Source: an uncultured Chloroflexia bacterium
GTDB taxonomy: Bacteria; Chloroflexota; Anaerolineae; JAAYZQ01
Direction: 5' to 3'
Assembly: GCA_963700285.1 (NCBI GenBank)
Contig: CAVOXA010000010.1
Span: 320,001-384,000, forward strand
Length of the DNA stretch: 64,000 nucleotides
Position numbers and translations under genes: made by a program. Below, piece by piece: positions 767-63,896 of the stretch; position 1 is the stretch's first letter, and every line of letters starts with the position of its first letter. Below the pieces are notes generated by a model. The model was given only the letters and a program-made list of their open reading frames with translations. It did no database searches and was not told the DNA's origin.

Positions 767-2844
767 TCAATCTCCCGGGGTCTCCAAGGTGACCAGATCC
801 ACCCTCACCAGGCCCTCGATAAGGGGCAGGAATAGGGCCGGATCCAGTTCAAAGCCAAACTCCATGCAGACGGCCTCGGCAATCTCTGCGATGTTGCGCC
901 GGCCATCGATCATGTTCCACACTTCGTCGTTCATCACGCGCAATGCATAGAAGGTATAGACCGGATCCTGGGTCTCCATCGGGGCCGAGATCTCGGCTTG
1001 CTCCGGGTAGGTAAAGATGGCCAGCCCGGGCGTGAATCCGGGTACCCTCTTGTGGGGGATGGCTGCCAGGGCTGCCGCCTGGCCAGCAGAACGGCGGCCC
1101 AGATCGCTCCCAGGCTGGGGGCTTCCAGCTTTGGCATCCAGAGAGATCCCGGCCCTGGACAGGGCCTTCTCAATGCGTGACGATGCCTGCTCAGCCTCTT
1201 GTCGCAACGCGTCGATGCAGGCCGCGATCTGCTCCTCCGCTTCCGCGGGCGGCTGGCCCGGAACCAGATCCAACGTGGAGGCGATGGCCCGGGCGTCCCG
1301 GCTTTGGAAATAATCCAGTTCCCGGAAAGCGCGGCTGGCTATTCCCTCAGCCAGGCTACCACCAACCGGCGCATGGGCCGCCTTCAAGATCTGCTGTACG
1401 GCGCGGCTGCTTATTCTCCGGAGCCGGAACTGGCTGCGCGCCAGTACCTCATCGGCAATGGCCATCGCCTCTGGCAAGCCCGCATCGGCAATCTCGTACA
1501 GGGCCAGCGCGGTGGGCACGCCAGCGCGACGGAATACCTGGGGATCCATCTTGTCCGCGGTCAGGAACTGGGTATGAAAGTAGATGCTGGGCGTCGACAT
1601 GATCAGCGGGCTGGGGATGCCAAAGGAGGCGAAACGGTTGTTGTCGCTCCAGGGCGTGTAGGGCTCGGAGGTAAACACGACCCCTGACATGCCCTCGTCC
1701 TGCCGGCCGATCCATTGGCGTCCTTCGGCGCGCGGTCCATCAGCCCTTCAAAGTAATCGTTGATGAACGAGGGCGACGAGTCGGGGTGCCGGGAGAAGAT
1801 GAGCGTCGACTTGAGTATCTCCTGGTGGTTGCCGACGCTATCCAGGCAGATGGCGGCCTTGATGCCAGGCAGTTCCTCCGGGTGCTCGGCGAAATAGGCT
1901 TCAGTGCCCAAGCCTTCAGCGACGACAAAGAACTTGATGCTGCGGCGTGGCGGGCGCACCTTGCCCTCCCGGATGAGGCACTGCAGGACGCGGGCGATCT
2001 CAACTAGTAGCGCCACCCCAGCCGCACAGTTGGCGCCAGGTTGGGTACCGGTTGTGTGGGCCATCAGGATCACCGATTCTTCTGGCAGCTCCCGGCCCGG
2101 GATGGTGGCTATCACATTCCGCCCATGGCCCTTGAACGAACGACAGCGGATATCGGCGTGTACGGTGACCGGCCCGAGCTTGAGCAACTCTCTCAGGCGT
2201 TGTCCGGCATGCAGAGTTAGGGAGCAGCCCCAGGCATCATATTTGCCCTGGCTGTTTGGCAGACGCAGGAACTGAGCCGCATCAGGCACCTGCCAGCGCG
2301 TCCGGTAGGGCGCCAGAGGGTAGAGAAAATAGTCGGTCAGTACGCCTTTTGCTCCGCGCCGCAGCGCCTCTTCCGCCGCGTATTTCCAAGCCTCCCGCCG
2401 GTTGGTATGGCTGATAAAGGCAACCTTGCCCTCGAGATCTTTGTCCCGCCAATCTGCCTCCGACAAGCCCAAGCCGACATCCACAACCTCAGCCGCCATG
2501 CCTCCAGCGGGCGTGGGCTGCGACCAGACGGTCAGGCAGGTGGGCGCCTCATCAAAGCTGACCAGCTTTTCCTGGGTCGGGGCGAGCACACTGACTTGTG
2601 CAGCGTGGGGTTCCCAGGCCAAGGGGGTAGCGCCATCCAGCAGCACGGTCTCGCCATCGATGGGATAGGTTGTCACCTCCAAGTCATCGAACCCGCACTC
2701 GCGCAGCTTCTGCAGGGCCAGGTTGGTCGCGGCGTGGTACCCGGATGAGCCCGGGGTACGGTAAAAGCGCGTGATGGCAGCCGTGGTTTCTGTAGCGCTC
2801 TCCCCCGAAAGCATCTCGTGAATCAGCAAGGCCAGAGAATCCAT
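767..2844 (-). CDS. DUF4910/M28-like aminopeptidase with PA-type insert and C-terminal winged-helix-like tail; split by one frameshift near 1700
   Basis: ORFs 1603..2883 and 767..1690 read as one protein (TRFYRTPGSSGY, AHTTGTQPGAN, CLDSVG, PYTPWSDN, WNMIDGRRNIAEI). Start MDSLALL at 2844. Confidence 0.75.
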
Positions 2845-3031
2845 ACGTTCCCTCTTGGGTTTTCTTGGCGGCCAGTTCCGCACATGGCCTATTTTCTATG
2901 GACAGAGAAGTGAGGACCGTTCGTTAGACCACATCGTCGATGGCTACAAAACCGGCTTTTTGGAAAAGGTGGCGTCAGGATCTATCGCAGGCTCCCTCTT
3001 ACGAGTCGGTAACAGGCGCCCAGCGTGCTGG

Positions 3032-3979
3032 CTATACCACGTTCTTCATGCGCGGATCCAAATAGTCCCGTATCCAATCACCCAGCACATTGATCCCAAG
3101 CACAGTCAAAGAAATGGCCAGACCGGGAAAGATAACCAGCCAGGGAGCGATCTCCAGATACTCGCGGTTTTCCGACAGCATTCCCCCCCAGGTTGGAACA
3201 TCAGGGGGCACACCCAAGCCCAGAAAACTGAGCGAGGCTTCAGCAATGATGGTACTTGCCACAGAAAAGCTGGCGATGACAATCACCACACCCCACAGAT
3301 TGGGGAGCACGTGACGTCCCATGATCCGCCCTTGGCGAACACCCACGGCGCGGGCCGCATCTACGAATTCCATCTCCCGCAAGTATATGACCTGGCTCCG
3401 GGCCAGGCGACCATAGGTCACCCAGCCGGTAATCCCCAGCACGATGATAAGCTTGTCCACACCCGGCCCCAGGACGGCCAAGACGCTGATGGCCAGCAGA
3501 ATGAAGGGGAAGGCTAGCTGGATATCGCCGATACGCATGATCACGTCGTCCAGAAGACCGCCCATATAGCCGGAGATCAGGCCCAGGAAAACACCCAGTG
3601 TACCCGCCAACAGTACCGCGCTCAAACCGACAACCAGCGAAACCCGGGCGCCGTAGCACAACCGGGCAAAAACATCACGGCCCAGCGTATCAGTGCCCAG
3701 GAGGTGCAATGTGCCATCGGGCGCGCGCCATAGAGGTGGCTTGAGCCGGCTGATGATGTCGATCTGGGCGGGGTCGAGTGGCGTCAGGACCGGCGCCAGC
3801 ACGGCAACCAGGACTGCGACCAGGACGATAATCGCACCAACCAGAGCGAGCTTTCGACGGGCGAGACTGCGCAGCGCCCCAAAACGGGGGCGTTCCGGAA
3901 TTGTGCCGCCATCGGTAAGAGAAGCGGGGCGCGCCGGCGACACCTCTGCTGCCCCTGACGCATCGTTTCTATCAGACAT
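3032..3979 (-). CDS. dppC: Peptide/nickel ABC transporter permease (DppC/OppC type)
   Basis: HLLGTDTLGRD, EAA-type loop (EFVDAARAVG), EASLSFLGLG, GDWIRDYLDPR. Confidence 0.95.
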   Translation of the reverse strand: MSDRNDASGAAEVSPARPASLTDGGTIPERPRFGALRSLARRKLALVGAIIVLVAVLVAVLAPVLTPLDPAQIDIISRLKPPLWRAPDGTLHLLGTDTLGRDVFARLCYGARVSLVVGLSAVLLAGTLGVFLGLISGYMGGLLDDVIMRIGDIQLAFPFILLAISVLAVLGPGVDKLIIVLGITGWVTYGRLARSQVIYLREMEFVDAARAVGVRQGRIMGRHVLPNLWGVVIVIASFSVASTIIAEASLSFLGLGVPPDVPTWGGMLSENREYLEIAPWLVIFPGLAISLTVLGINVLGDWIRDYLDPRMKNVV

Positions 3980-3997
3980 TCAGGCTCCTCTGTCCCT

Positions 3998-10868: not shown

Positions 10869-11847
10869 TCATTCCTGAGGTTCAAACGACAACGCCCGGG
10901 CCGGATTCTCAACCAGGATGCGGTGTAGCAAGCGCATCGTCAAAGCCCGCCTTGACGCAGCCTGGGCACAAAATCCCGCAGCACGTGATCGTAGCCCGGC
11001 CCGCCTCCGACCTTGAGTTCCATCTCGCGGCAGCGATCGGAGGATAGCATTAGGTGGTCCTGATATCCCCTGTCGACCATCTCGCACAGCAGGTCGACCC
11101 GGGTCTCGTCGAGCATCCAGTGGATCTTGCCGATGACGTCGAACTGGACGTAGGCCCCCCGCCGGGCCAGGGCCACCAGTTGGCGGATGTCGGCGTTCTC
11201 GTCGGTATGGCCAATGATCACCCGGCCGGGTCCACCCCTTCCGCCTCAAAGAGATCGAGGTGCTGCATACCAATGTTGCCGCCCTCGATCTCAAAGCGCG
11301 TCGAGCCGCTGGTGTGGGTGGTGATGGACACACCGGTTCGCTTTTGGGCAAGGGCGACGGCGCGGGCACACTTGAGCTCAGGCCCCTCGATCACCGGCCG
11401 GCTGACGCCCGACTTGAGCAGGCCGGTGCGGATGGTCGTACCGTCCGCGCCGCAGGTCAACTCTTGCACCAATAGTTCCGCCAGATCATCGATGCTGGTA
11501 TCAGCCACGTAGGGCGGGTGGCAGTCTTCGACGTAAAAGCCCGAGATGGCGACAACGTGAATATCCGCACGCTCCGAGATATCTTTCAGAACCACCACGT
11601 CCCGCCCCCAGCCGCTGGTCGTCATCTCGGCGATGGCCCGGCCGCCGGCGGCGTGAAAATCGACCAGCTCGGCGACGATGGTATCCACGTTCAACAGAAC
11701 CATCTTGGCATAGGTACCGGGGAAATCGAGCTCGGAGCGGCAGAGGCGCTGATCACAGTAGAGATGCTCGTGGGGAGCCGTTACCCCCAGTTCCTCTGGA
11801 GCAATATCGCCGCGCACCGTTCGAACCACAGGCGAACCGGTTTTCAT
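10869..11847 (-). CDS. Phosphotriesterase-like (Php/PTE) amidohydrolase; frameshifts near 11221 and 10940
   Basis: VRTVRGDI, HEH, GLLK, ITTHT, IGHTD, LSSD, ILVENPARAL across ORFs 11218..11847, 10940..11221 and 10869..11369. Confidence 0.85.
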
Positions 11848-12524
11848 GTGCGCACCCCCTCCAGCATCTCGATGACCTGCTGCGTGGTCCGCATGCGTAC
11901 CAGGGGACCCACCAGGCCGGTCTTGATGATCTCGTGCCAGCCCAGTGTTTCGCTGGCCGACGCATCCCAGGCGAGGATCACTCCCAGGTCACGGTCGGCA
12001 GCCTCCCGGGCGGCGAGGGCCACCGTCGTGTTGGCCAGCATGCCAGCCAGGATGATGGTGTCGACGCCAGCCTCGTGCAGCGTGTTCAGAAGCACCGGCC
12101 CCGCCGCGAAGGGGCTGTAGGTCCCTCTGGATAGCACCAGATCGCCGGACGTCGGAGCCACTTCGGGGCGGATCTCCTCCCACGGCGAGGCAACCGGGAT
12201 CGGCAAGCCACTCAGGCGGAGCTGCCGTGACAGGTCGCTGCGGTCGGGCTCCTGAGCACAGAGGACGGAATAGATCACCCGCAGCCCATGCCGGCGACAA
12301 CCAGTCAGCAGCGACACCATGTTGCGAAGGGCGGCATCTGTCTGGGCATAGTATTCCTCAAACTCGCGCAGGATGCCCTGCTCACCGGCAAACAGGCCCA
12401 ACCCCTGGTCGCGCATTGTGGTAAAGCGCTGGGCGTCCAGCAGCAACAGGGCCGCGTTCCCCGCCGCCAACGGAAAGGCCGGGTTGGCATGCGAGAGCAT
12501 CTTGAAGGGTACCCTTGGTTTCAT
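11844..12524 (-). CDS. Isochorismatase/cysteine-hydrolase family protein lacking the catalytic Lys and Cys
   Basis: C-terminal part of ORF 11844..13988 from MKPRVPFK: ALLLLDAQ, SRGTYSPF, LAGMLANTTV, AADRD. Purine-rich RBS-like GGGGAAAGGG precedes ATG 12524. Confidence 0.75.
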   Translation of the reverse strand: MKPRVPFKMLSHANPAFPLAAGNAALLLLDAQRFTTMRDQGLGLFAGEQGILREFEEYYAQTDAALRNMVSLLTGCRRHGLRVIYSVLCAQEPDRSDLSRQLRLSGLPIPVASPWEEIRPEVAPTSGDLVLSRGTYSPFAAGPVLLNTLHEAGVDTIILAGMLANTTVALAAREAADRDLGVILAWDASASETLGWHEIIKTGLVGPLVRMRTTQQVIEMLEGVRT

Positions 12525-12537
12525 AGGCCCTTTCCCC

Positions 12538-13988
12538 CTACAACTGCCTGCGGCATAGTTGTACACGAGGTCGACCAGGTACTTTTCGACGTCGGCCAGA
12601 CCGGCGACTTGGCCGTCCCCTTCGATGATCATATACTCGTCGGCATCGCCCCGGCCTCCACCGCCGATGACGCCGCCCCGGACACAGGGTACATTGAAAG
12701 TGTTGGGAACCACGGTCCAGGGGCCGCCGCCCGGCTGCATGGGCCAGATCTCGGCCGCCACGTTCCAGGACGCTAGCGTCTGAAGCGTGGCCTGCACGCC
12801 CGGATCGGAGACGGAGGTTTGGGAGTGGCTAAAGGCAGCGTAGACGTCGATCTCGATATCGGCGAAACCTCGTTCGTCCAGGTGCTGTCGTATAAAGCCA
12901 ATGATCTCCTCAGCCGTCAGATCCACCACCCAGCGCATATCCAGCGTGGCTGTGGCCGTGGCCGGGGTGATATAGGGAATGGTGGTCGTCTCTGGTCCCA
13001 GGAACCCACTGCGTAGGCCGGCGATGTTGAAGGTCGGCCCATAGAGCAGGTTGACGAGGGGGTCCATGCCCTCCAGACCGCCCACGACGTGGCTCACATT
13101 GCCGACACCGCCGAGAGGTAGGACATCACGCCAGTCGCGGCCAGAAGCCCGGGCAGCTAGCGTCTCCAGCAACTCTCGCTCTTCCCCCGTCAGGGGTTTG
13201 CGATAGTTCCAGAGTTCCTCCAGCCCTGCGACGGTGCAGCCCAACCCATCCGCATCGGTCAGGGAAGACAGGGCCTGCGCCAGGCGGAAGGGAGGGCAAT
13301 CCACCAGCGACGCCGCGGAGCTGTGCACAGTCTTGACCGGTCCCCGCCCCCAGGACTGCCCGCTGGCCGTCAATTCGATGACGACCATGCCCTTGAGCCC
13401 CAGGCCCATCGAGACAGTACCGTTGCCTGCCTGGCTACAGGAGGGACAGAAGCTGGCATCCACGTTCTGCAAGCGGCCGGCATAGCGCGCCACAAAATCG
13501 GCATAGGTGGGACTGCCCATAATCTCCTCGCCCTCGGCCAGGAACATGATATTCATGGGCAGGCCACCCTCTACAGCAATGATGGAAGCTAGAGCGTTCA
13601 ACCAGGCTACGTAGGGGCCCTTGGCGCCCATAGCACCACGGCCGACGAGCACCTTGGGGTAAGGTCCGATGGGTACCAGTTCCGCCCCCCAGGGATCGTA
13701 GCTCCAGGTACCCGGCTGCACGGTCCGGGTGTCGATCATGCAGTAGTTATGGACCGTCAAGGGTGCCCCGGCGTCATAATGGGCCCAGACGCCAGGGTGG
13801 AAACGTCCCTCGATGACCTCTACTTCCTGGCAGCCCAGGTCGCTGTACGACTGGGCCACCAGCTCGGCGGCCTCGCGGGTGCCGATATTGTCCCAACTGA
13901 CGCTGGGCTGCCTGACCCACTCTTGGATGTGGGCGACGTGCTGGTCCAGATGTTCGTCGATATGGCGGTGTATGGCTTCTCGATCCAT
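12538..13988 (-). CDS. M20 family peptidase-like protein with degenerate metal ligands (appears fused in frame to the next gene)
   Basis: VRQPSVS, YCMIDT, GRGAMGAKGP, EGEEIMGS, PTFNIAGL, GDADEY. An out-of-frame TAG at 12538-12540 is the likely true stop. Confidence 0.75.
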
Positions 13989-14008: not shown

Positions 14009-15433
14009 TTATAATGATTTGATCTGGGCAACGATCTGCTCGACTGACTTGACCTGGATGACCCCACTCTCTACTCTCCACAGAAACTCTTGCAGCCCAG
14101 CGTGATGGGTCGCGCAGGCATCGGGCACCACGACCAAACCATAGCCACGGTCGCTGGTACTGCGGATGGAACCCTCGACAGCGCCGTCGTACGAGATGCC
14201 GGCCAGAATGAGGTTCTCGAGGGCCAGGTTGCGCAAAAGCTCGTCCAGGCCGGTGCCGGTAAAGATACCCGAGGCAGACTTGTCGAGGATGATCTCGCCT
14301 GCTCGTGGCGCCAGTCCGGGCATAAACTCGGCCTCGGGGCTGTCTGGCCCAAAGGCGAAACCCTGGGCCCGTACCTTGCGGCTGAGATCTCGGCCGTCGG
14401 GCAGTCTTCCGGCCGTGCGAACGTGGATCACCGGGACACCTTGGGCGCGACAGGCCTGCAGCAATTTCCCCATACCCGCCAGGGCACTCTGAACGCGCCC
14501 ATAGTACTCGGACAACAACTCCTCTTGACCTCCAGCGGCGGCCAGGGCTCCCAGCCCGAGAGATGGGTCACAGGTGAATCGCTGTCCATCGACCAAGACC
14601 AATGCCGTGTTGCTCTGCGCCAGGGGGAGTTGAAGAGCAGGCGGGAGGATGGCATCATAGGGATCTTTGTCGGCAGAGTCTGTGTCGTCCGGGGGCTTGG
14701 GGAGATAGGGTTTGACCCGCTCCAGGCCGCTCTTCACCTCGGGGCCAACAGCCTCCAGCGGATCGATCAAGTCCACGATCTGGTCTGTGGAGAGGATGTG
14801 CGTCAGCGCGCCCTCCAGATAGCAGATAGCTAGTTCGTGGGTCTCGATGGTGCCCGCCGCACAGGCGTCCGATACGACCACAACGTCATAGCCCAGATCC
14901 ACGGCGTCCCGCACGGCGCTCTCGACACAGCCATTGGTCGAAGTGCCGGTAAAGATCAGGGTCGTGATGCCCATATTGCGCAGCAAGCGATCAAGGTTGG
15001 TAACGGGGAACACGCCAGAGGAGGACTTGTTCACGATCAACTCATCGCCCTTGGGCTGCAGGTCGTCCAGAAAATCAGCCTCACGGCTGCCCGCTGGCAC
15101 GACAAAGCCACGCACCAACTGCTTGCGCCCCACGTCCCGCGAGTCCCCAGTCAGTTCCGAGACACGGATGTGGATGACCTCCATCTCTTTGTGGCGAAAG
15201 AGGGTCAAGAGCTGCTGGATGCGCGGAATGACCGCGTCAATCTGGGAGAAATATTCCTCAAAGTACCGTTCTACACCCAGTTCTTTGGCCGTGCGGCCCT
15301 CGCCCTCATCACGGTCAGCGTCAAAGTACTGCATGTCGACCACCAGCAGGGCGGTACTACCGGCCTGCATCTGTACAGGGGATGTACCAAGGACCTGGCC
15401 AATGGGGTTGTGACAGTTGTCTTTCACATTCAT
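14009..15433 (-). CDS. Tandem two-domain isochorismatase/cysteine hydrolase
   Basis: Domain 1: VVDMQ, NKSSSGVF, TNGCVES, SDACA. Domain 2: LVDGQ, DKSASGIF, YDGAVEG, PDACA. Confidence 0.9.
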   Translation of the reverse strand: MNVKDNCHNPIGQVLGTSPVQMQAGSTALLVVDMQYFDADRDEGEGRTAKELGVERYFEEYFSQIDAVIPRIQQLLTLFRHKEMEVIHIRVSELTGDSRDVGRKQLVRGFVVPAGSREADFLDDLQPKGDELIVNKSSSGVFPVTNLDRLLRNMGITTLIFTGTSTNGCVESAVRDAVDLGYDVVVVSDACAAGTIETHELAICYLEGALTHILSTDQIVDLIDPLEAVGPEVKSGLERVKPYLPKPPDDTDSADKDPYDAILPPALQLPLAQSNTALVLVDGQRFTCDPSLGLGALAAAGGQEELLSEYYGRVQSALAGMGKLLQACRAQGVPVIHVRTAGRLPDGRDLSRKVRAQGFAFGPDSPEAEFMPGLAPRAGEIILDKSASGIFTGTGLDELLRNLALENLILAGISYDGAVEGSIRSTSDRGYGLVVVPDACATHHAGLQEFLWRVESGVIQVKSVEQIVAQIKSL

Positions 15434-19917: not shown

Positions 19918-19919
19918 GG

Positions 19920-21069: not shown

Positions 21070-21072
21070 GGC

Positions 21073-23721: not shown

Positions 23722-23731
23722 CAACTGCTCC

Positions 23732-46164: not shown

Positions 46165-46239
46165 CACTTTCTCCTTTTCTCCAAATCCACACCGGCTGTC
46201 TGCCGGCAGTGTCCCTGGGATCGTACTCGCTTCTGGCTC

Positions 46240-47058: not shown

Positions 47059-47084
47059 TTCTCCAACCCCCACCAGCATCCTCT

Positions 47085-49705: not shown

Positions 49706-50655
49706 TCGTAGCTGATGCGCGGATCCAGCCAACCATAGACAATATCCGCGAAAAGATTGAAAAAGACAACCATGAAGGCCCCCATCATCAAGATAGCCAT
49801 CAGCAGGGGATAGTCGCGCTGACCCATGGCCTGGATGAACAGGCGACCAATGCCTGGCCAGGCAAAGATGGTCTCGGTGATCACTGCTCCGGAAAAGAGC
49901 CCAGCCAGGTCCAGGGCCATGATAGAGACCACCGGGATGAGCGCATTCTTGAGCGCGTGCCGCCCCAGAATCATGTTCTCGGTAAGGCCCTTTGCCCGGC
50001 CGGTACGAATATACTCCGAATTGACCACTCCCAGCATACTGGTTCGCATGTAGCGAGACCAGCCGGCAATGTAGCGCAGAGAGAGGACAATGCCCGGCAG
50101 AATAAGATGTTTGGCCTGATCCCAAAACGAGTTGTCGCCAACGGTCGCGCGGCCCGAGGTGGGCAGCCAGCCTAGCTGGACTGCAAAAACCAACTGTAGG
50201 ATCAAGGCGAACCAGAAGACCGGCATCGCCACCCCCAGGAAGGAGAGGCCGGTACCTGCAAAGTCCAGCGCGCTATACTGACGCACGGCGCTTACAATGC
50301 CCAGAGGTAAGGCTACGACGGCGGCGATGATGAACCCGACCAGCATCAACTCCAGCGTCGCCGGCAGGCGTTCAAAAACCATCTCTGCCACGGGCCGCGC
50401 TGAGGTATAGCTGTAACCCAGGTCCCCTTTGGCCGCAGTGCTGATCCAGCGCAGATATTGAATGTAGATAGGCTTGTCCAGGCCCAGCCGGTGGCGGTAG
50501 GCCTCGATGATCTTTGGATCGACAAAGCGTCCCGTCTCCAGAAAGACGGTCTCCGGGCCACCCGGGGCTGCCTGGATGACGAGAAAAATAATGATCGAGA
50601 TTCCGACCAGGAGCGGGATCATCTGCAGCAGCCGGCGACGTATATATCGACTCAC
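49702..50655 (-). CDS. dppB: Peptide ABC transporter permease (DppB/OppB type)
   Basis: GLDKPI, GDLGYSY, YIRTGRAKGL, ETIFAWPGIG, LDPRI. Confidence 0.95.
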   Translation of the reverse strand: MSRYIRRRLLQMIPLLVGISIIIFLVIQAAPGGPETVFLETGRFVDPKIIEAYRHRLGLDKPIYIQYLRWISTAAKGDLGYSYTSARPVAEMVFERLPATLELMLVGFIIAAVVALPLGIVSAVRQYSALDFAGTGLSFLGVAMPVFWFALILQLVFAVQLGWLPTSGRATVGDNSFWDQAKHLILPGIVLSLRYIAGWSRYMRTSMLGVVNSEYIRTGRAKGLTENMILGRHALKNALIPVVSIMALDLAGLFSGAVITETIFAWPGIGRLFIQAMGQRDYPLLMAILMMGAFMVVFFNLFADIVYGWLDPRISYE

Positions 50656-50690
50656 TGAGTACCTTCCACCATGAGTTAGCTTCTGGAATT

Positions 50691-50714
50691 GGCAGCTATG
50701 GAAAGCCGCCCTAC
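50691..50714 (-). repeat. GTAG-type REP-like element GTAGGGCGGCTTTCCATAGCTGCC
   Basis: GTAG tetranucleotide directly followed by a 7-bp stem with one G-T wobble. A second hairpin lies next to it at 50721-50742. Confidence 0.5.
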
Positions 50715-50800
50715 GGACTCCCCTACCAGGTTCCTGGCAGGGTGGGTATCCCTACCCGTATCTTTTCAAAGCTCAGCGCCTGTACTGCGGAATATCGCCA

Positions 50801-50834
50801 GGTTGGGCTGGAGACCTGAATCCCCAGCCCAACC
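50801..50834 (-). terminator. Hairpin downstream of the third solute-binding-protein gene
   Basis: 11-bp stem GGTTGGGCTGG/CCAGCCCAACC. No clear U tract, so mRNA stabilisation is as likely as termination. Confidence 0.5.
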
Positions 50835-50860
50835 CATACAGACTAGACAACCTCAGTCAG

Positions 50861-52558
50861 CTAGTTGCCAAAGTCCCATTCGTAGGAATTCCAGAAGCTG
50901 CCCAGGTTGGTGCCACTGCCCTTAAAGTTCTCAAAGTCTTCCCTGAGAACATAGGGTCTCGGCTGGTAGTAGATGGGCAACTGCGGCACTTCTTCCTGCA
51001 AGATCACCTGGACCTCGTCAATCAGCGGTTTGCGCTCGGCAAAGTCAAAGACGCTATCTGAGGCGTGCATGGCCTCATCCAGGTCCTCGAAGCAATAGCC
51101 GGTAAAGTTGTTGGAGGCGTCGCAGGCATACAGAGAGGTGAGGCTTGGATCGGCGGGAATGATCCAACCGCCGACAATGGCGTCCCATTCGGTGGAAAGC
51201 CACTTTTCGATCCAGGCCGCATTCTCCATGTCCTCGAACACGACTTCGACGCCGATCTCTTTGAGCTGGGCCTGGATCACCTGGGCGATGGCCACGCGTT
51301 CCGGGCGGCTCATACGGTTCATGATGGCGAAGGAGAAACGCTCGCCGTCCTTTTCACGGATGCCATCGTCGCCTACCGTCCAGCCCGCTTCGTCGAGCAA
51401 CTGCTTGGCCTTCTCAGGATCATATGTGTACTTGGGCACGTCGGGGTTGTGATAGGGGCTGCTGGGCGTGATCGGCGTGTCCGCGACCTCTACGGTACCC
51501 TCCATAAGATCGACGGCGATGGACTCGCGGTCAAAGCCAAGGGACAGGGCATGGCGTACGTTCTTGTCGCCGAACAACATCTGGCCCCGCTCCGTGGCAA
51601 CGTTGGTACCAAAGTAGACCCAGATGTTCGAGTTGACGATGTCGGTCTTGTACCCTTCCAGGCCCTCAACCTCTGCTACCTGGGCGGGCAGGACCTCGCC
51701 AAGGTCGTGTTCACCGGCCTTGAGCGCATTCAGACGGGTGTTGGGGTCGGGGATGAAGGTAAAGATGATCTCGTCGAGCTTGGGATAGTCGGGTCCACGC
51801 CAGTAGTTCTCATTCTTTACGACGCGGACGTACTCGCCTGATTTCCACTCGGCAAACTTGAAGGGGCCTGTGCCCAGCGGGCTGCGGTTGTAAGCGTCGT
51901 AGGTGAGGATGTCCTCGCCCTCAAGAAAATGCTTGGGCAGGATCGTGTCGAACAGGCTGGCATAGGGCGCGTAGACTTTTTCCCAGGTCAGGACGACGGT
52001 GTAGGGATCGGGCGCCTGGCAGTCGATGATGTTCTGGTACTCGGTCTGGTTATAGACCGCAGCACCCGCCTCACTGACGATGAATTCCCAGGTGAAGCAA
52101 ACGTCCTCGCTGGTGAACTCGACGCCGTCGTGCCACTGGACACCCTCGTACAGGTTCCAGGTCATCTCGACCTTACCATCATCGAGCATGACAATGCCGC
52201 CGTTCTCGGTGGTGGGAATCTCTTTGGCCAGCACAGGAATATAGCTATTGTTGTCATCGCTCATGATCAAACCATCGATCATGGTGATCTCGATGTCAGT
52301 GAGGTTCTGGCTGGTGAGCGCATTCAGCGTATCGATCTCAGAACCATAGGCCACGCGCAAGACCTTCTTCTCGGCCGCGGGCGGCTCGGTGGGCGCCTCG
52401 GTAGGTTCGGGCTCGGCGGGCGCCTGGGTAGGCTCGGGCGCAGCGGCTGCCTCGGTCGGCTCCGGCGGCGCCTCGGTTGCTGCCGGACCGCAGGCGGCCA
52501 CCAACAGCGCGAGTACTACGATCATCAATAACATGCTAGGCCAGTACTGCTTTTTCAT
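50861..52558 (-). CDS. Peptide ABC transporter substrate-binding lipoprotein, family 5
   Basis: Lipobox LVAAC, P/A/T/E linker, WHDGVEFTSEDV, GTGPF, NVRHAL, FWNSYEW. Confidence 0.95.
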   Translation of the reverse strand: MKKQYWPSMLLMIVVLALLVAACGPAATEAPPEPTEAAAAPEPTQAPAEPEPTEAPTEPPAAEKKVLRVAYGSEIDTLNALTSQNLTDIEITMIDGLIMSDDNNSYIPVLAKEIPTTENGGIVMLDDGKVEMTWNLYEGVQWHDGVEFTSEDVCFTWEFIVSEAGAAVYNQTEYQNIIDCQAPDPYTVVLTWEKVYAPYASLFDTILPKHFLEGEDILTYDAYNRSPLGTGPFKFAEWKSGEYVRVVKNENYWRGPDYPKLDEIIFTFIPDPNTRLNALKAGEHDLGEVLPAQVAEVEGLEGYKTDIVNSNIWVYFGTNVATERGQMLFGDKNVRHALSLGFDRESIAVDLMEGTVEVADTPITPSSPYHNPDVPKYTYDPEKAKQLLDEAGWTVGDDGIREKDGERFSFAIMNRMSRPERVAIAQVIQAQLKEIGVEVVFEDMENAAWIEKWLSTEWDAIVGGWIIPADPSLTSLYACDASNNFTGYCFEDLDEAMHASDSVFDFAERKPLIDEVQVILQEEVPQLPIYYQPRPYVLREDFENFKGSGTNLGSFWNSYEWDFGN

Positions 52559-52716: not shown

Positions 52717-53886
52717 CTATTGAAACATCTCGACTGTCTGAAGGGAGTGCATTCTCCCATACAGATAGCGATAAAACTCGGGACGGCGCTCCACCGGCAC
52801 TCGTTGCCATACCGGCGTGACTACTCGCTCCCCCCACCAGTAGGACCAGATCAGGACAGCGCGCGCTGGAGCAGCCAAAAAGCGAATGCGATTCGCCACC
52901 CAACCCTCGCCCCCGGCCAGACTGACGGACCGCAGCCAATCAGTTACCTGTTCCTCAGGCCAGTCCAGGGCGTGCATGCGCCAGGCCGCCCCGGTCCCGA
53001 TGCCAGCCCGGTAGCGGCCCATCAAGGCTGAGAAGCGATCGTCATCCGACTCGAGCCAACCCAGCATGTGCAGGCCATTGTCGGCAATGCCCTCGAAGGG
53101 CGAAGAGCTGGCAGTATTGACCACCGAAAGCAGGCCATCGGCTGGCGCGAGCCCCTCGTGATACCAGCTTTCGCGCAGCTTGAACTGGACATAGTGGCCT
53201 GGGCAGCCTTCGTGCACAGCCAGATGCTTCAAACCAGGCCGCGTCAAAATGGGGTCTGTATTCAGCTCGATCTTGCGCACCAGGTAGTTGCAGCGCGCGT
53301 TAAAGGCAACACCCGAGACTGGGACAACCTGCATGGCGTCCGACTTGGGCGCGGGGATGTGCAGCCGCTCCTCGGTGCGGTCCCAGGCTTCTGCCATCAA
53401 CGCCTGGCTCAGATCAGGCACCTCATCAGGCGGCACCCGATTCCGGGCTTCCCAAGCTGCACACTGCGCTGCCAGATCACCGCTGTAACCCATGCTATTC
53501 AACAGAGAACGCATCTCGCCGCGTAGGGCGTCCAGTTCGGCATCGGAAGCAGGCCCGGCCGGGACATGCAGGAACCCGCCGAGTTGCTCGGACAGGGACA
53601 AGTCACCCTCGCGCCAGTCCATAAAAGCCAGCGTAGACTGGCACAGTTGCTCATAATAGCGGCAGCGGTCCGGTTCTGGCAGCTCGCCGGCCAGGGTCGA
53701 CAACTGCCCAAAGCGTTCCCGGGCTGCGGCATAGGAATCAAAGGCTTCGGGTTGGTGAGTACCGGCAGCCATATTGACGACGACAAGCCCTTCCTCGTCT
53801 CCGCTTTCGGCCCGGTACAGAGCATCCACGCCGAGCAGCGCGGTTGTAGCTTGCTCGCCAAGGGCCATAGTCTTGTCACTAAGCAT
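52717..53886 (-). CDS. Hypothetical zincin-like protein, short and distant DUF885 relative
   Basis: VHEGCPGHYVQ, FEGIAD, WSYWWG. Overlaps the stop of the upstream DUF885 gene. Confidence 0.7.
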   Translation of the reverse strand: MLSDKTMALGEQATTALLGVDALYRAESGDEEGLVVVNMAAGTHQPEAFDSYAAARERFGQLSTLAGELPEPDRCRYYEQLCQSTLAFMDWREGDLSLSEQLGGFLHVPAGPASDAELDALRGEMRSLLNSMGYSGDLAAQCAAWEARNRVPPDEVPDLSQALMAEAWDRTEERLHIPAPKSDAMQVVPVSGVAFNARCNYLVRKIELNTDPILTRPGLKHLAVHEGCPGHYVQFKLRESWYHEGLAPADGLLSVVNTASSSPFEGIADNGLHMLGWLESDDDRFSALMGRYRAGIGTGAAWRMHALDWPEEQVTDWLRSVSLAGGEGWVANRIRFLAAPARAVLIWSYWWGERVVTPVWQRVPVERRPEFYRYLYGRMHSLQTVEMFQ

Positions 53887-55579
53887 CAACTGCTTTCCTT
53901 TCCATCTCACTGGCGGTCAACGCCACGGGAATAGAGCCATAGGAGAGAAACTGGTCATGGAAACGGCGCAGGCTAAAGCCGCTGCCCCAGCGGCGCGCCA
54001 TCTCCTGGCGCAACGATTGGATATGGTCAGTGCCAATCAGGTACATCATCGCCCCGCCGGGGAACATGCTGTTCTTGACTGCCTCGCCGTGGGCAGCCCC
54101 GTGCGGCATGCCTGCCCGCTCCTCATAAAAACGCACAGCCTCGTCCAGACTCATGCGCCCCTGGTGCAGCCGGACGTCAACGATGGCCCGGGCGCTCATC
54201 CGCCGCCTTGACTGGTGTTCGGCATACAGCTCCAGGGGCGTCAGGAACCCGGCCTCGCCCATGAGACCGGTAGCATAGCAAGCCCAGCCTTCGGCAATGG
54301 TCCCGCTGCAGAACATGGCGACGCGGGAAGCACAATCGACGGCCGCCATCCGCCCGATGCGGGATTCGGCCCGGTAGGCGTGCCAGTTCTGGACGTGGTG
54401 CCCGATGCTGCCGTGATGGACCACGTGGTTTAGCTTGATGGTACTATCGTTGTTGCCTCGAAGCAGTGCATCCTGCTCGGCCGCAGGCATCGTGGCCTCG
54501 ATGGGGGTTACCAGGTAATCGTGCACCGGCGGCCTGTTGAAAGCCGCTGGGGCGCGGTAGAACAAGAAATAGAGATAGGGAGCCGCCCTGCGCGCCCAGC
54601 CAGGCCGGGGCACGTAGCGGATGGGAAACTCGGGCCAGGTCAGCAGTTCCTGCGCTTCGGCCGTGGCCCGGCAGGCTTCCCACACCTCAGTGTAGCGATC
54701 ATAATAGCCCTCGACCGTGGGATGAAGATCGGCCAGTGCGTCCAGTGCCTCGCGGGCGATGCCTGCACCAAAGTCAGCGGCATGCGCCGCGAGCTGAGCT
54801 TCGGCCTCAGCCATCTGCTCCTCGGCGTAGCGAGCGATCTCGTCGGGGCTCATGTCCACAAAATGACCCTGCTGCATCATTAACTCAAACGCTAGCTCAC
54901 CGCAGGCATAGCCATCGGTGGGGTGTGCGCGCAATTCGGTTTCCAGGAAGCCCTGGTATCCGGCAAATGCCGAGGCGGCCTTGTCCGCTGCGGCCCGGAA
55001 GCGCGGATCGGTTACCGGCTCGTTCTGGATCAGCCAATCAACACCGTCCTGAAAGAAAGCCAGGGCCCCGGTGCATTCCCTTATGGCCCGCTCGGTCCAG
55101 GCAGGTGGCGCCTGGGTCACGTTGGCCCGCGCCTGCTCCAGCAAGGCTGCAGTCGCCCCCATGCGGGCGATGGCCGACTCGACACGCTGGTCCAGTGGGG
55201 CAAATGGGGTCAGAAAAAGGGACAGGATGCCAAATATCGCCTCGCCGGTATAGAGGGATGGATTCCCAAGGTGGAAATGAGTGGAGGTATATTCCCACAA
55301 CTGGCACTCGAGGTAGCCCTTGGCCAGTTTGCGATCCAGCGCCTCTGCCCCGGTCAGGGGTTCGGCGCCGGGCATGGGTTCGGCCGCTAGATTACGCAGT
55401 TGCCCCAGCAGTGACTCCATTTCGGCCAGCGTGTCACCCGCTCCCTGCTCCGAGTAATCAGGCAACTGGTCATCGTATTGGTGAACGCCAATGAACGTGG
55501 CGTTGACCGGGCGGCGGCGGTAGTAGGCAGCGAAAAACTCATCGAGCCAGGTAGTGAATTCTGGGGCTTTTGTCTCCAT
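53879..55579 (-). CDS. DUF885 family protein with HH in place of HE
   Basis: ATFIGVHQYDDQLPD, VVHHGSIGHHVQ, AEGWACY, IVDVRLH, FSLRRFHD, YGSIP. Confidence 0.88.
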   Translation of the reverse strand: METKAPEFTTWLDEFFAAYYRRRPVNATFIGVHQYDDQLPDYSEQGAGDTLAEMESLLGQLRNLAAEPMPGAEPLTGAEALDRKLAKGYLECQLWEYTSTHFHLGNPSLYTGEAIFGILSLFLTPFAPLDQRVESAIARMGATAALLEQARANVTQAPPAWTERAIRECTGALAFFQDGVDWLIQNEPVTDPRFRAAADKAASAFAGYQGFLETELRAHPTDGYACGELAFELMMQQGHFVDMSPDEIARYAEEQMAEAEAQLAAHAADFGAGIAREALDALADLHPTVEGYYDRYTEVWEACRATAEAQELLTWPEFPIRYVPRPGWARRAAPYLYFLFYRAPAAFNRPPVHDYLVTPIEATMPAAEQDALLRGNNDSTIKLNHVVHHGSIGHHVQNWHAYRAESRIGRMAAVDCASRVAMFCSGTIAEGWACYATGLMGEAGFLTPLELYAEHQSRRRMSARAIVDVRLHQGRMSLDEAVRFYEERAGMPHGAAHGEAVKNSMFPGGAMMYLIGTDHIQSLRQEMARRWGSGFSLRRFHDQFLSYGSIPVALTASEMERKAVDA

Positions 55580-55739: not shown

Positions 55740-56288
55740 TCAGATGACTGCCCGCACTACATCCTGGGCCGAAAGCCGGTGGGGTGGCCCTGGCTGGTGA
55801 GCTGGATAGCCCAGAGCAACCAGGAGAAAAGGTGTGATCTCTTTGGGAATGGGCAGCACCCGCTTCAGGGCGCCTGGATCAAAGCCGACGGCCACGCAAG
55901 ACCCCAGCCCAAAGTGGGTGGCGGCCAGCAGCATGTTCTCCACGCAGCCCATGCAGTCCAGCTTGGTCAAGAGATCTCGACCTTTTTGTCCATAGCGGGC
56001 GGTCATGCGTTTGAGATCGTAGCACACGACGACGATGACCGGGGCCGCCAGCATCCATTCCTGGGTGGTCACGCCAGCGCGGGTCGTGATGCCCGCATCG
56101 GTGGTATCCACCGCTTTCTGCCGCGCCCCTGGATCCTTCAGGATAACAAACTCCCAGGCCTGCATGTTACCTGCGGATGGCGCCCAGGTACCAGCCTCGA
56201 TGATCTGCCACAGTACCTCGTCCGGCACATCCTTGTCCACGAAACTGCGTACGCTCCGGCGCTGATAGATGGCTTCCATAACATCCAT
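55740..56288 (-). CDS. Nitroreductase family protein
   Basis: RRSVRSF, APSAGNMQAW, ENMLLAA, GLGSC, ALGYP. Confidence 0.92.
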   Translation of the reverse strand: MDVMEAIYQRRSVRSFVDKDVPDEVLWQIIEAGTWAPSAGNMQAWEFVILKDPGARQKAVDTTDAGITTRAGVTTQEWMLAAPVIVVVCYDLKRMTARYGQKGRDLLTKLDCMGCVENMLLAATHFGLGSCVAVGFDPGALKRVLPIPKEITPFLLVALGYPAHQPGPPHRLSAQDVVRAVI

Positions 56289-56312: not shown

Positions 56313-56870
56313 CTACCACCGCTCCTGGTGGAAATAGTCCTCCAGGGGCAGGAGGGGCAGTCGCGCCGCCTCTGCCTGGGAATACCCGAGCACAATCAAG
56401 ATAAGCGGTTCGACGTGTTCTGGCAACTCCAGGAGTTTGGCCATCCGTTGGTGGTCGAATTCCCGGATCAAGCAGCTCTTGATCCCGAGCTCCAGGGCCG
56501 CCAGCCGCATATTCTGAATCGCCCCGCCGCTGTCCTGGATCCCAAACAGCTTCTCCCCAATCTCGCCGTAGCGGGCCTTGGCCCGCAAGCGATCAAGGCA
56601 CACAACCAGGACGACGGGTGCTTGGGCCAACCAGTCCCGCCGCTCATCGCCTCCCAGGCGTGGGCGCAGGTGGGAGTCCAGCAGGGTACGGACAAGGTCT
56701 ACCTTCCGCTCTCCGTCGCGGACGGCAATGATCTCCCAGGGCTGGGCGTTGGCCGCCGACGGCGCCAACGCAGCCATCCCCACGATGGCTGCCAGTTCAG
56801 CATCGCTCACAGCCTGCTCTTCGAACTCACTGACACAACCGACGCGCTTCAACTGATCGACAATGGCCAT
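56313..56870 (-). CDS. Nitroreductase family protein lacking the N-terminal RRSxR motif
   Basis: APSAANAQPW, QNMRLAALELG, VLGY. N-terminus reads KRVGCVSEF. Confidence 0.85.
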   Translation of the reverse strand: MAIVDQLKRVGCVSEFEEQAVSDAELAAIVGMAALAPSAANAQPWEIIAVRDGERKVDLVRTLLDSHLRPRLGGDERRDWLAQAPVVLVVCLDRLRAKARYGEIGEKLFGIQDSGGAIQNMRLAALELGIKSCLIREFDHQRMAKLLELPEHVEPLILIVLGYSQAEAARLPLLPLEDYFHQERW

Positions 56871-56880
56871 GGTCACCTCT

Positions 56881-57585
56881 CTACTCCCTATCCGTACGGA
56901 GTTTCTCAAGGGCTCTCAGAGTACGCTCCTTGCCACCCTTTAGGTGGACAATGAGACGCTCGTAGGCCAACTCCTGATCACGGGCCCGCAGGGCCTGCAC
57001 GATGCCGCAATGTTCGTCGATCATGACGAGCACCTCTTCCGCCGGCGCGATCGTCTCGACCAGCCAGCGAATGCGGACAGATTGATCGTTCACCAACCTG
57101 GCCAACCGCTCGAACAACCGGTTACCGGTGGCCTGCAGGATCATCTCGTGCATGGCAAAGTCAGACTCCAGATGGCTGTCGTACCGAGATTCGCCTGCGT
57201 CCTGGCGAGCGCATGCCAGTGCCCCGGCGATCTCGTCGAGCGTGTCCTCCGGAAGCCTGAGCGCCGCCTCATTGATGGCCCAGCCTTCGAGCAGGAGGCG
57301 CATCTCCCACGCGTCGCGCACATCCGCTGCCTCGATCTCGGCCACGCGGGGGTTCTCATAGGGTCTCATTGTGACTAGACCATCGTGCTGGAGCATGGCC
57401 AGCGCTTCGCGCACTGGGGTGTGGCTCACACCCAGATCACTGGCCAGTCGGTCGATGACGATGGCTTGGCCGGGACGAAGCTGGTTAGTCAGAATGAGCT
57501 GTTTGATCTGGGCCCGGACCTGTTCCCGCAGCGGCCCCCTCTGGATCTTTTCCACTCCGGGTAGCGTGTATCTACTCTCGTCCAT
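56881..57585 (-). CDS. GntR family transcriptional regulator (FCD domain)
   Basis: wHTH LASDLGVSHTPVREALAML, MRLLLE, DFAMH...TGN, EHCGIV. Confidence 0.93.
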   Translation of the reverse strand: MDESRYTLPGVEKIQRGPLREQVRAQIKQLILTNQLRPGQAIVIDRLASDLGVSHTPVREALAMLQHDGLVTMRPYENPRVAEIEAADVRDAWEMRLLLEGWAINEAALRLPEDTLDEIAGALACARQDAGESRYDSHLESDFAMHEMILQATGNRLFERLARLVNDQSVRIRWLVETIAPAEEVLVMIDEHCGIVQALRARDQELAYERLIVHLKGGKERTLRALEKLRTDRE

Positions 57586-57641: not shown

Positions 57642-58028
57642 CTAGTCCTCTACAACGGCAAACACCTCAATCTCCAGACGGATACCGCGCTCTACCCAGG
57701 ATTGGCTGTCCAGCTTGGTGCCGGTGTGCGGCGGGTAGTGGTCGCCCATGTACCGCTGGCGGACCTCGTGGATGACGGGCATGTCCTCCGCATCGAGGAA
57801 CATGGTATGCACATAGACCACGTCCTGAAGGGTGGCGCCCCCCTCAGCCAAGATCGCCTGCAAGGAATCCATGATATTCTCGGTCTGGGCCCGGGCATCA
57901 TTGGGCGCAACCACATTGCCATCGATATCCAGCGGCACGCGCCCAGCGGTAAAGATCATGTTGCCGGCCCTGACTCCTGAATAGTAGCGCGGTGTGTTAT
58001 AGATCGTCTTGGGGTTCAGTATTTTCAT
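57642..58028 (-). CDS. RidA/YjgF family protein without the catalytic Arg
   Basis: FTAGRVP, AQTENI, DVVYV, YPPHTG in place of PAR, LEIEVFA. Confidence 0.88.
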   Translation of the reverse strand: MKILNPKTIYNTPRYYSGVRAGNMIFTAGRVPLDIDGNVVAPNDARAQTENIMDSLQAILAEGGATLQDVVYVHTMFLDAEDMPVIHEVRQRYMGDHYPPHTGTKLDSQSWVERGIRLEIEVFAVVED

Positions 58029-62443: not shown

Positions 62444-62465
62444 TTGCTACCCCTTGTTGCGTCCC

Positions 62466-62497
62466 AGACTTCCGAAGGCTCAGGACCTCGGAAGTCT
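62466..62497. repeat. Hairpin repeat of the same type upstream of the acetamidase
   Basis: Perfect 10-bp stem AGACTTCCGA/TCGGAAGTCT. Confidence 0.6.
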
Positions 62498-63896
62498 ATG
62501 GAATCTGCGGCTTGATGACGGGCCAGGAGACACTCAGCCCGATCCTTTCACCGTAGCCCGCTTCCCGGATCATGGCCGCCTGGGCCTCGCGCGCCCGGGC
62601 CACAACCTCCTCTTCGTCAAAAACCGTACTGCGCCCGTCGCTCAAGATCACGCTACCGCCGACCAGTACTGTGTCGGCCTGAGTGCTCACTCCCGAGTAA
62701 ACCAGGTTGCTGACCAGCATCGCATCGGGCACCAAATGCAACTGATTGCGCCGGAAGAGGGCGATGTCAGCCTGCTTGCCTGGTTCCAGGGATCCCACCC
62801 GGTCGTCCATGTTCAAGGCCGCCGCGGCCTTGATGGTGACCATCTCCAGGGCCTGTTCCGCTGTGCCCAGATAACGGTCGCCGGATTGGGAGCGTTGCAG
62901 ATAGACGGCCAGTTTCATAGCCTGCCAGATATTCTGCCCGTTGTTCGAGTTTGAACCATCGACGCAGATGGCGACCCGTGCTCCCAGCTCTTCCAGATCC
63001 CAAATGGGTGGGGGCTGGTTGCCTGTGCGCAGGGCCTGGTCGGGACAGTGGGCGATCCGCACCTGGCGACTGCCCAACAATGCCAACTCCTCCTCCAACA
63101 GGCCAGTCCGGGTACAGTGTACGGCCAGCAGTTCTGGCCCGAGCAGACCCAGGCTGTCCAGGTATTGGACCGTGCCCATGCCTACCGTTTGCAGTGCATC
63201 GGCCAGCTCCTCGCGGTGATGGCCAAGATGCATGTGCCACAATTGGCCCCGCTCCCTGGCCCAACCATACATGGCCAGGATCCCTTCGGGCGTGCAGCGC
63301 AGGGATTTGGATGCTTCCGAGTTGATGAGGATGCGCTCGGAATCGTACTTGGCTTCCAGGCGGTCTAGATCTTGCAGGGCAACCTCCGGTCGCTCCCGGA
63401 AGGGTTCCGCCATCTGCTGGCCATCGCTGAACCCCCGGCCGATGATGGCGCGCATGCCAGACTGCAGGACCGCGTCACAGACGCCGTCGGTGGAATCCAT
63501 GTGGTAGTGGGTAAAATGGCTCTCTTGCGTCGTCGTCACGCCATAGTGGACGAGTTCCAGAAGCGAAAGGCTGGCGCCCGCCCGTGCCCGTTCCCGCGTC
63601 AGACCCAGGGCCATGTGCCAGAAAGACCCGGGTGGATTGGGCTCGTTGAAACAACTCCGGTACAGACATTGGTCCAGGTGATTGTGGGCATTGACCAGGC
63701 CCGGCATGACCAGCATATCGGAAGCGTCGATGCGTTCTTTGGCCGCGAAATCTCGGACCGAACTGCTCACACCCACAACCAGGCCATCCTTGACGCCCAC
63801 ATGGCCGGGTACATAGATTCGCCGCTGGGCGTCCATGGTGAGGACGATGCCCCCCTCGATCAGCAGGTCCACAGGGATGCTTGGCTGCTTGGTCAT
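62496..63896 (-). CDS. Amidohydrolase of the MTA/SAH deaminase - atrazine chlorohydrolase group
   Basis: PGLVNAHNH, GVTT, HMHLGH, AVHC, AHCP, CVDG, GSLEPGKQAD. Confidence 0.9.
   Translation of the reverse strand: MTKQPSIPVDLLIEGGIVLTMDAQRRIYVPGHVGVKDGLVVGVSSSVRDFAAKERIDASDMLVMPGLVNAHNHLDQCLYRSCFNEPNPPGSFWHMALGLTRERARAGASLSLLELVHYGVTTTQESHFTHYHMDSTDGVCDAVLQSGMRAIIGRGFSDGQQMAEPFRERPEVALQDLDRLEAKYDSERILINSEASKSLRCTPEGILAMYGWARERGQLWHMHLGHHREELADALQTVGMGTVQYLDSLGLLGPELLAVHCTRTGLLEEELALLGSRQVRIAHCPDQALRTGNQPPPIWDLEELGARVAICVDGSNSNNGQNIWQAMKLAVYLQRSQSGDRYLGTAEQALEMVTIKAAAALNMDDRVGSLEPGKQADIALFRRNQLHLVPDAMLVSNLVYSGVSTQADTVLVGGSVILSDGRSTVFDEEEVVARAREAQAAMIREAGYGERIGLSVSWPVIKPQIP

Follow-up and report, generated by a model that had tools for sequence, protein, structure and literature searches.

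The closest described counterparts of the locus studied here are the metformin hydrolase MfmAB and the carboxyguanidine deiminase CgdAB, each encoded by adjacent homologous genes whose products are ~34% identical; one chain of each pair is described as lacking the cofactor-binding residues, as always co-located with its partner and as serving as a scaffold (PMC10927577). For the Rid family, a second source relates that imine hydrolysis by RidA and Rid1-3 requires Arg105, and that the subfamilies Rid4-Rid7, which are described but of unknown function, lack the Arg for imine hydrolysis, keep the Glu and often occur alongside RidA (PMC4433059). The locus itself is a 64,000-nucleotide stretch of DNA (the window) from contig CAVOXA010000010.1 of an uncultured Chloroflexia bacterium, in which catabolic genes of unrelated families encode proteins with altered catalytic residues. 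The source genome (G000; 7.05 Mb, 22 contigs, 89% complete) carries the window at G000:C10:320001-384000, and a genome of the same genus (G001) was used for synteny and for the ratio of nonsynonymous to synonymous substitution (dN/dS). Coordinates given are window positions, G-numbers denote genomes and L-numbers metagenome loci; all identified genes of the window are on the minus strand.

The window is part of a real catabolic super-cluster, of which no description was found in the literature searched and in which a design known from MfmAB and CgdAB probably recurs in new families. It comprises at least three modules, and it would import modified peptides or amides, use hydrolases and C-N redox enzymes to strip these, and ferment the released amino acids for ATP; this reading, taken together with the division of the odd proteins into helpers and re-tooled enzymes set out below, has a probability of roughly 0.6. 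Its nitroreductase-fold pair, NtrA and NtrB, is like MfmAB and CgdAB in being composed of co-located homologues with 34% identity, one chain of which lacks cofactor residues, in a setting of nitrogen-compound catabolism. The described pairs, however, have ureohydrolase or deiminase folds, and their complexes and substrates have been shown, whereas here the folds are those of nitroreductases, AstE and isochorismatases, the complexes are only predicted, and most variants have no fixed homologous twin.

A preliminary description of the window had named a series of catalytic-residue substitutions and held that indel noise did not explain them. Every one was found as an in-frame codon and recurs in G001, where the region is syntenic, with the same gene order and protein identities mostly of 85-98%. 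The variants might still be taken for decaying duplicates or long-read errors: many window genes are frameshifted in this assembly, two of these frameshifts are contradicted by contigs from other runs, and the AstE (78% identical) and short-chain dehydrogenase/reductase (SDR; 87%) pairs are recent duplicates. This explanation is refuted by the presence of the same residues in G001 and in dozens to more than 100 homologues, and by dN/dS values far below 1, and deserves next to no credence. The ratios (Nei-Gojobori, G000 against G001) were 0.02-0.22 in 11 variant genes, a set that leaves out the Gfo gene at 36200, and 0.03-0.22 in intact neighbours; individual values were 0.02 for the Rid protein, 0.053 for the variant AstE, 0.064 for the variant DUF885 protein, 0.082 for M20, 0.10 for NtrB and 0.215 for the Cys-less isochorismatase. 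The measured variant genes are under purifying selection, like their intact neighbours. Canonical orthologues combined with relaxed selection, which the preliminary description had named as grounds for abandoning its interpretation, were not seen; the variants are conserved, and the gene set recurs in other genomes. Judged by sequence comparison, most substitutions mark old, conserved subfamilies, some of them spanning phyla.

Non-canonical copies make up 10/18 in the window against 8/85 elsewhere in the genome (six families; Fisher p 4e-5), an enrichment to be read with the caution that the families were picked post hoc and that paralogues are non-independent. Taken singly, only the SDR (4/6 versus 3/36, p 0.004) and Gfo (2/3 versus 2/26, p 0.04) families were significant. 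The proposal that an intact copy regularly stands alongside each variant did not hold as a rule: adjacency was found only for AstE, the nitroreductases, the isochorismatase domains and one DUF885 pair. The intact M20 lies 11 kb from the variant (30% identical), and 47 kb separate the intact Rid from its variant (29%). His stands in each of the two neighbouring SDRs at 34.5-36.2 kb, and neither of the Gfo variants keeps the His.

Two other explanations accept the variants as genuine. One takes all of the variants for dead scaffolds, each assembled with an intact homologue, and the entire island for a single heteromer-built pathway, which we judge quite improbable; according to the other, there are no pseudoenzymes, the variants being ordinary active enzymes of uncharacterised subfamilies and their adjacency reflecting consecutive pathway steps in a paralogue-rich region, which seems unlikely. 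The former has a precedent in MfmAB and CgdAB (PMC10927577). In the reading preferred here, a minority of the odd proteins would be helper subunits of a homologous enzyme and the majority would be re-tooled proteins acting or binding alone or with unrelated partners.

The most convincing helper pair is encoded by NtrB (56313..56873), a nitroreductase fold without the motif RRSxR for the phosphate of flavin mononucleotide (FMN), and, directly downstream, NtrA (55740..56288), in which the motif is intact. In NtrB the motif reads VGCVS; among its homologues (n=74), none of the 72 ungapped rows has Arg at the first or last Arg column, where acidic residues stand, and NtrA orthologues keep RRSxR in 21/21. 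The best 23 of 59 metagenome loci were examined, some of them near-duplicates; two end inside NtrB and one lacks it, and in all 20 that extend past NtrB, NtrA lies directly downstream. The same order occurs in G001, G005, G011, G013, G018, G269 and G270, and a reverse search from NtrA in 400 genomes of the phylum gave one hit (G500, 43%), where an RRS-less homologue is again upstream. The predicted NtrA-NtrB complex scored 0.90 against 0.03 for the best of three controls, with at least 99% contact agreement between runs and partner pLDDT (predicted local distance difference test) of at least 86, and passed a mark reached by 116/157 solved complexes and 2/215 mismatched pairs; because solved homodimers of the same fold exist, this pass indicates likeness only. 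The strict adjacency and the passing model favour the view that all variants are scaffolds, and the loss of both Arg columns in a protein never seen without NtrA speaks against a region free of pseudoenzymes. As modelled, NtrA and NtrB are likely a true homologous enzyme/helper pair forming a heterodimer.

Nitroreductase FMN sites are built from both chains, so that an NtrA-NtrB dimer would hold one FMN; its phosphate-binding arginines would come from NtrA and its PSxxN/D-xQPW loop from NtrB. The known homodimers of the superfamily (closest solved structures 4dn2, 4g8s, 9exv and albonoursin synthase 8uc3) share the fold, the PSxxNxQ loop and the modelled dimer interface, whereas here there are two genes, of which one lacks RRSxR, and the dimer is predicted to be asymmetric. 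No heterodimeric nitroreductase was described in the literature searched, most subscription journals lying outside its reach. A GntR/FCD regulator gene (56881..57585) is upstream of NtrB and near the pair in several genomes, and the pair co-travels with racemase, class I aminotransferase, 2-oxoacid:ferredoxin oxidoreductase and succinyl-CoA-synthetase-like genes, several of them frameshifted in the window (19045..25993).

Helper roles are plausible in two further cases. The AstE/AspA-family deacylase at 33320..34312 has the catalytic Glu (GAG at 33748), and its tandem duplicate (32275..33282) has Leu (CTC at 32697) with the zinc ligands kept; by residue reading, both copies have lost the Arg of the family NxNR motif. 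The Leu copy was found in G000 and G001, and L068 has two copies, one with Gln. A Glu-less AstE is beside a Glu copy in 3/3 cases, and the Glu copy stands alone in G005, G011, G013 and L080. The approximately unbiased (AU) test, applied to an 11-row tree, rejected a single clade of Glu-less AstE (p 7e-11; 6e-13 on omission of the long branch L048), which rules out one ancient origin. Since the Leu and Gln copies do not form one clade, the Glu was lost twice independently, each time beside a Glu-keeping copy, and this suggests selection for a non-catalytic twin. Such repeated loss would suit scaffolds throughout; moreover, Leu cannot be a general base, a point against all variants being active.

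The other case belongs to a module of isochorismatase, M20 and phosphotriesterase-like genes. Its two-domain isochorismatase-family amidase (14009..15433) reads Asp-Lys-Cys in domain 1 and Asp-Lys-Ala in domain 2 (Cys169 and Ala418); in all orthologue rows domain 1 has Cys, and domain 2 has Ala, Thr or Ser, mostly Ala. An active and a dead domain within one chain would again agree with scaffolding, and Ala at the nucleophile position is hard to reconcile with activity of every variant. Next come an M20A-like protein without metal ligands (12521..13988), a single-domain isochorismatase-fold protein in which Asp-Arg-Thr replaces Asp-Lys-Cys (11844..12524), and a phosphotriesterase-family hydrolase with metal ligands kept (10869..11847; frameshifted near 11227 in this assembly), whose start overlaps the stop of the preceding gene. 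Homologues of the Cys-less protein (n=120) have the Asp in 116, Arg for Lys in 116 and Ser/Thr for Cys in 116 (Ala/Gly in 3, not displayed in 1), and Ser or Thr could stand in for the Cys nucleophile, as would be expected if the variants were active. Its model (pLDDT 92.9) matches BiuH/TrtA-type structures with TM scores of 0.73-0.79.

The phosphotriesterase-family gene follows the Cys-less isochorismatase in 14/14 loci, from Chloroflexota, Alphaproteobacteria, Armatimonadota and unclassified bacteria, and a reverse search from it in 400 genomes of the phylum returned one, G531, with the same gene order. The two-domain enzyme is present in 10 of the 14 loci and elsewhere in two more genomes; it was not found in G268 or G274, which have the Cys-less protein, although these genomes may be incomplete. 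Co-occurrence is therefore not obligate, and the trio was rejected as an obligate set; these genomes also count against an intact partner for every variant.

The window M20 has Cys or Met for His, Gly for Asp and Ile for Glu, and does not keep the five metal ligands (H, D, E, D, H). It belongs to one clade of 16 rows (SH-aLRT, the Shimodaira-Hasegawa-like approximate likelihood ratio test, 100) in which the bridging Asp, ligand Glu and final His are gone; the general-base Glu and the HxD Asp remain in all 16 rows. As the general base is kept, chemistry or binding seems a better assignment than bare scaffolding. Such proteins occur in 10/14 loci of the module, and in Bosea and Natrialba without the rest of it; their presence in loci without an intact M20 of the clade argues against scaffolding, and further ligand-less M20s and HxxxK SDRs elsewhere in the same genome would suit active enzymes. 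The fold and general-base Glu are common to M20A dipeptidases (2pok, CNDP2, Dug1), but here the metal ligands are lost across a prokaryotic clade. Yeast Dug2p holds an inactive M20 domain. It activates the unrelated Dug3p, according to the source (10.1101/2023.02.02.526638), whereas no Dug3-like partner was seen beside the ligand-less M20. A 714-aa M20-isochorismatase fusion was rejected as a real protein: one extra base near 12551 joins two genes, and it is taken as an assembly error because the genes are separate in G001 and the base at 12551/12552 is absent in the X3 and X4 contigs.

Biuret and triuret hydrolases (BiuH, TrtA), N-carbamoylsarcosine amidase and NicF share the isochorismatase fold, and domain 1 of the two-domain protein keeps their Asp-Lys-Cys. 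The score with the BiuH model NF050097, however, was 146 bits, far below the cut-off of 370, and the window isochorismatases differ from the BiuH/TrtA group in that two of their three domains lack Cys and in the fixed link to a phosphotriesterase-like gene. In the literature searched, again largely outside subscription journals, no account was found of isochorismatase/phosphotriesterase/M20 modules or of pseudoenzyme-heteromer modules. A variant arrangement was observed at L055:9989-15316 and in L056 (M24 peptidase, Cys-less isochorismatase, phosphotriesterase, DUF6282, intact M20, M24), and L062 has hydantoinase A/B upstream instead. An Amidohydro_3 gene, presumably D-aminoacylase-like, is upstream of the module in the window (15526..17133). 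The open reading frame pair at 767-2883 (minus strand) is probably one frameshifted M28/DUF4910 aminopeptidase gene, with relatives that are single frames of 659 and 733 aa; this gene was found with the isochorismatase module in L054, L061 and G531.

A further module combines DUF885, Gfo and ketopantoate-reductase-like (PanE-like) genes. The protein here called DUF885-HH (53879..55579) has a zincin fold, the ligands being a pair of His and a Glu further downstream, and His in place of the general-base Glu (HHGSIGHH; HE to HH at 54415); HH was present in 119/119 homologues. Its model (pLDDT 91.2) matches the DUF885 structures 3u24, 3o0y and 3iuk (Z 28-31, root-mean-square deviation 3.2-4.4 over 509-526 residues) better than M32 peptidases (Z 11-13); it shares the whole-chain fold and the HxxxxGH and EGWA zinc motifs with both, and differs in the His. 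The literature searched, as far as its texts were available, gave no function for any DUF885 protein. A short DUF885-like protein with an HE motif (52717..53883) is a frequent but not obligatory companion, and a full-length DUF885 with the HE motif lies at 47085..48755; the latter carries Asp instead of the Glu of its relatives as third zinc ligand (DGWAEY). The HH and HE types occur together in G000, G001, G005, G269, G270 and 4/4 plasmid loci examined, as expected of scaffold pairs. No copy of the short gene was detected in G011, G013, G268, G271, G274 and G721, genomes that may be incomplete, and an obligate pair was discarded; DUF885-HH is the sole DUF885 match in G011 and G274, which opposes a scaffold role. 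A short DUF885 orthologue was detected in one of 250 genomes of the class.

The module also includes a peptide-type ATP-binding cassette (ABC) importer (48773..52558; a family-5 binding protein and two permeases) and, as a core member, the PanE-like protein (38605..39684). Four of eight plasmid hits were examined. In Deinococcus ficus (DFI_RS14445-14490, with the binding protein DFI_RS14450), Deinococcus sp. QL22, Lichenicola cladoniae and Ensifer adhaerens a compact operon encodes the binding protein, permeases, PanE-like protein, Gfo, DUF885-HH and usually the short HE protein, and Microvirga antarctica has it without the short gene. DUF885-HH adjoins Gfo in G011, L080, G274, G271, G721 and the four plasmids examined. 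The solved relatives of the binding protein are AppA and nickel and peptide binders, with no substrate indicated. The PanE-like protein scored 147.1 with TIGR00745, above the cut-off of 141.35, and its context is catabolic; it reads WGKQCYFSQ (WAKEVYSAQ in Deinococcus) where ketopantoate reductases have WRKACVN, so that substrate-binding residues differ.

The Gfo proteins carry Pro for His at 36769 and 45563. One (36200..37363) lacks the Asp/His pair (EGYGSPIID), and the other is in a trio (44179..47079) of a YxxxR SDR, Gfo (frameshifted near the 5' end) and an HxxxK SDR. Pro was found at the His position in 15/15 rows at 49-82% identity and His in 11/11 rows at 33-46%; when 400 more genomes from the class of G271 were searched, one contained the Gfo. 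Levoglucosan dehydrogenase (6a3f) and the Gfo/Idh/MocA enzymes DgpA share the Rossmann fold and EKP motif, but their DIATH aligns with GYGSP of the window, where the neighbours are peptide and not sugar transporters. Three tandem HE-type DUF885 genes are interleaved with two His-less Gfo genes at G270:C4:623200-629600 and G269:C8:50400-56900, which indicates that DUF885 and Gfo were amplified together. Two tandem HxxxK SDRs (34481..36245), the downstream one frameshifted near its start, complete the set. The SDRs replace Tyr by His at 35732, 34825 and 44520 and Lys by Arg at 46587, keeping the TGxxxGxG cofactor motif and not YxxxK; HxxxK was present in 13/13 rows at 40% identity or more, and YxxxR in 5/5 covering rows. 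The His-SDR was not found at E 1e-55 in G271, G274, G721, G531 and G500, in a search without a positive control, and the literature searched held no account of atypical SDR counterparts of the module. Two more HxxxK SDRs, which may be pteridine-reductase-like, lie outside the island (G000:C10:1364264-1365079 and 1413385-1414203). Contrary to universal scaffolding, the SDRs that lie next to each other are variants without exception, as are the two Gfo copies; each variant has its own invariant residues, as would active subfamilies.

The Rid-family protein (57642..58028) has His at the catalytic Arg105 position (57728), and His in 4/4 orthologues, where Rid4-Rid7 are described simply as lacking the Arg. 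Arg-less Rid subfamilies are a described class (PMC4433059); their existence speaks against scaffolding as a general rule and adds to the case for active variants.

The modules are separable. DUF885/Gfo/PanE-like genes recur in Deinococcus and Alphaproteobacteria, isochorismatase/M20/phosphotriesterase-like genes in three phyla, and the nitroreductase pair with amino-acid fermentation genes in Chloroflexota; G269 and G270 hold most of all three at 55-79% identity, and other phyla have single modules. The window is from this distribution a super-cluster of separable catabolic units, which does not agree with one heteromer-built pathway. Of the single novel system put forward at first, an uncharacterised catabolic pathway is still likely, given variants in conserved subfamilies and a recurring gene set, but three separable modules are not one indivisible system. 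Plasmid searches with the Cys-less isochorismatase, the His-SDR, the two-domain isochorismatase and the His-Rid gave nothing at the limits set, and atlas searches returned unnamed or generic clusters only. By the one-in-250 and one-in-400 counts given above, the modules are uncommon in broad genome samples.

Several points weigh against the preferred reading of a few helpers among re-tooled enzymes. Several of the loci relied on are closely related to one another or nearly identical. The modelled NtrA-NtrB complex is similar to nitroreductase homodimers of solved structure, and its pass may reflect memorised structures; NtrA keeps its own PSAGN loop and the loop Asn is Asp in 38/73 NtrB homologues, so that the two chains do not complement each other neatly in what they have lost, and NtrA might function as a homodimer. 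The Glu-less AstE is dispensable, since only one AstE, with the Glu kept, is present in G005, G011 and G013. The His is retained in Gfo relatives from Deinococcus and Alphaproteobacteria that have the same genes around them (6/6 at 41-46% identity), which implies that the module does not need its loss. Finally, not-found results rest on incomplete genomes (G011 91% complete, G013 87%), and one five-genome search for the short DUF885 had no positive control. On balance, the active/scaffold heteromers first proposed fit the nitroreductase pair well, making NtrA-NtrB a likely enzyme/helper pair, and are plausible for AstE and the two-domain isochorismatase, but are unlikely as a general rule; altered chemistry, offered as the alternative, suits most families better.

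The wider window encodes three peptide-type ABC importers, M18/M20/M28 peptidases, three DUF885 proteins, six amidohydrolases, AstE and isochorismatases, along with SDR, Gfo and 2-hydroxyacid dehydrogenases, and aminotransferases, racemase, 2-oxoacid:ferredoxin oxidoreductase and succinyl-CoA-synthetase-like subunits. A scan of the window detected no tRNA or tmRNA, and its G+C is 0.58-0.64 throughout, so nothing points to recent acquisition of the island. From ~C10:274 kb to 410 kb, the span of the catabolic region, related paralogues continue. At G000:C10:274700-285100 a second unit was observed, with GntR, a peptide ABC importer, an amidohydrolase, an Arg-Rid and a ligand-less M20 paralogue. 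TRZ/ATZ-type amidohydrolase paralogues are arrayed around the window (62496-63911, minus strand; G000:C10:307000-317000 and 384000-388400). Deaminases have an HxHxxE motif; the copy at 62496-63911 reads HMHLGH, another possible non-canonical site.

We infer a mechanism and a substrate class from the observed modules, conserved residue changes and purifying selection. The substrate would enter by way of three family-5 ABC binding proteins, and its amide bonds would be cut by DUF885 zincins, M18/M20/M28 peptidases, amidohydrolases, AstE, isochorismatase and phosphotriesterase-like enzymes. Aminotransferase, 2-oxoacid:ferredoxin oxidoreductase and the succinyl-CoA-synthetase-like ligase would then convert amino acids to acyl-CoA and ATP, a route known from peptide fermentation. 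The Glu-less AstE and the Cys-less second isochorismatase domain may be non-catalytic members of their own oligomers, and DUF885-HH, the ligand-less M20, the Cys-less isochorismatase, the His-SDR, the His-less Gfo and the His-Rid would be the re-tooled majority; most often their companions are unrelated enzymes, and some of them are found where the supposed twin is not. The residues that appear to be gone are carboxylate-binding arginines (Rid, both AstE) and, in SDR (Tyr) and Gfo (His), oxygen-directed acid/base residues, with cofactor motifs and general bases apparently retained, a pattern that would suit C-N/C=N substrates without a free alpha-carboxylate. A bolder version, possible though not what we would expect, is a cross-phylum pathway that degrades chemically modified peptides or N-heterocyclic amides, mostly by means of proteins that would be annotated as "dead": a heterodimeric single-FMN nitroreductase, a metal-free Glu-using M20, a three-histidine non-peptidase DUF885, a Ser/Thr isochorismatase with a phosphotriesterase-like partner, and His-SDR and Gfo amine-imine oxidoreductases.

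Automatic names such as nitroreductase, nicotinamidase-related amidase, M20 hydrolase and 2-dehydropantoate 2-reductase mask conserved non-canonical subfamilies, so the chemistry of the variants is probably mis-predicted. If the pairing holds, NtrA-NtrB would add an asymmetric dimer with a single flavin to a family known for its homodimers. The compact DUF885/Gfo/PanE-like operon sits in harmless, cultured strains of Deinococcus and offers a tractable unit towards DUF885 function, and the cluster as a whole may give a hint of how uncultured Chloroflexota exploit organic nitrogen that is hard to degrade.

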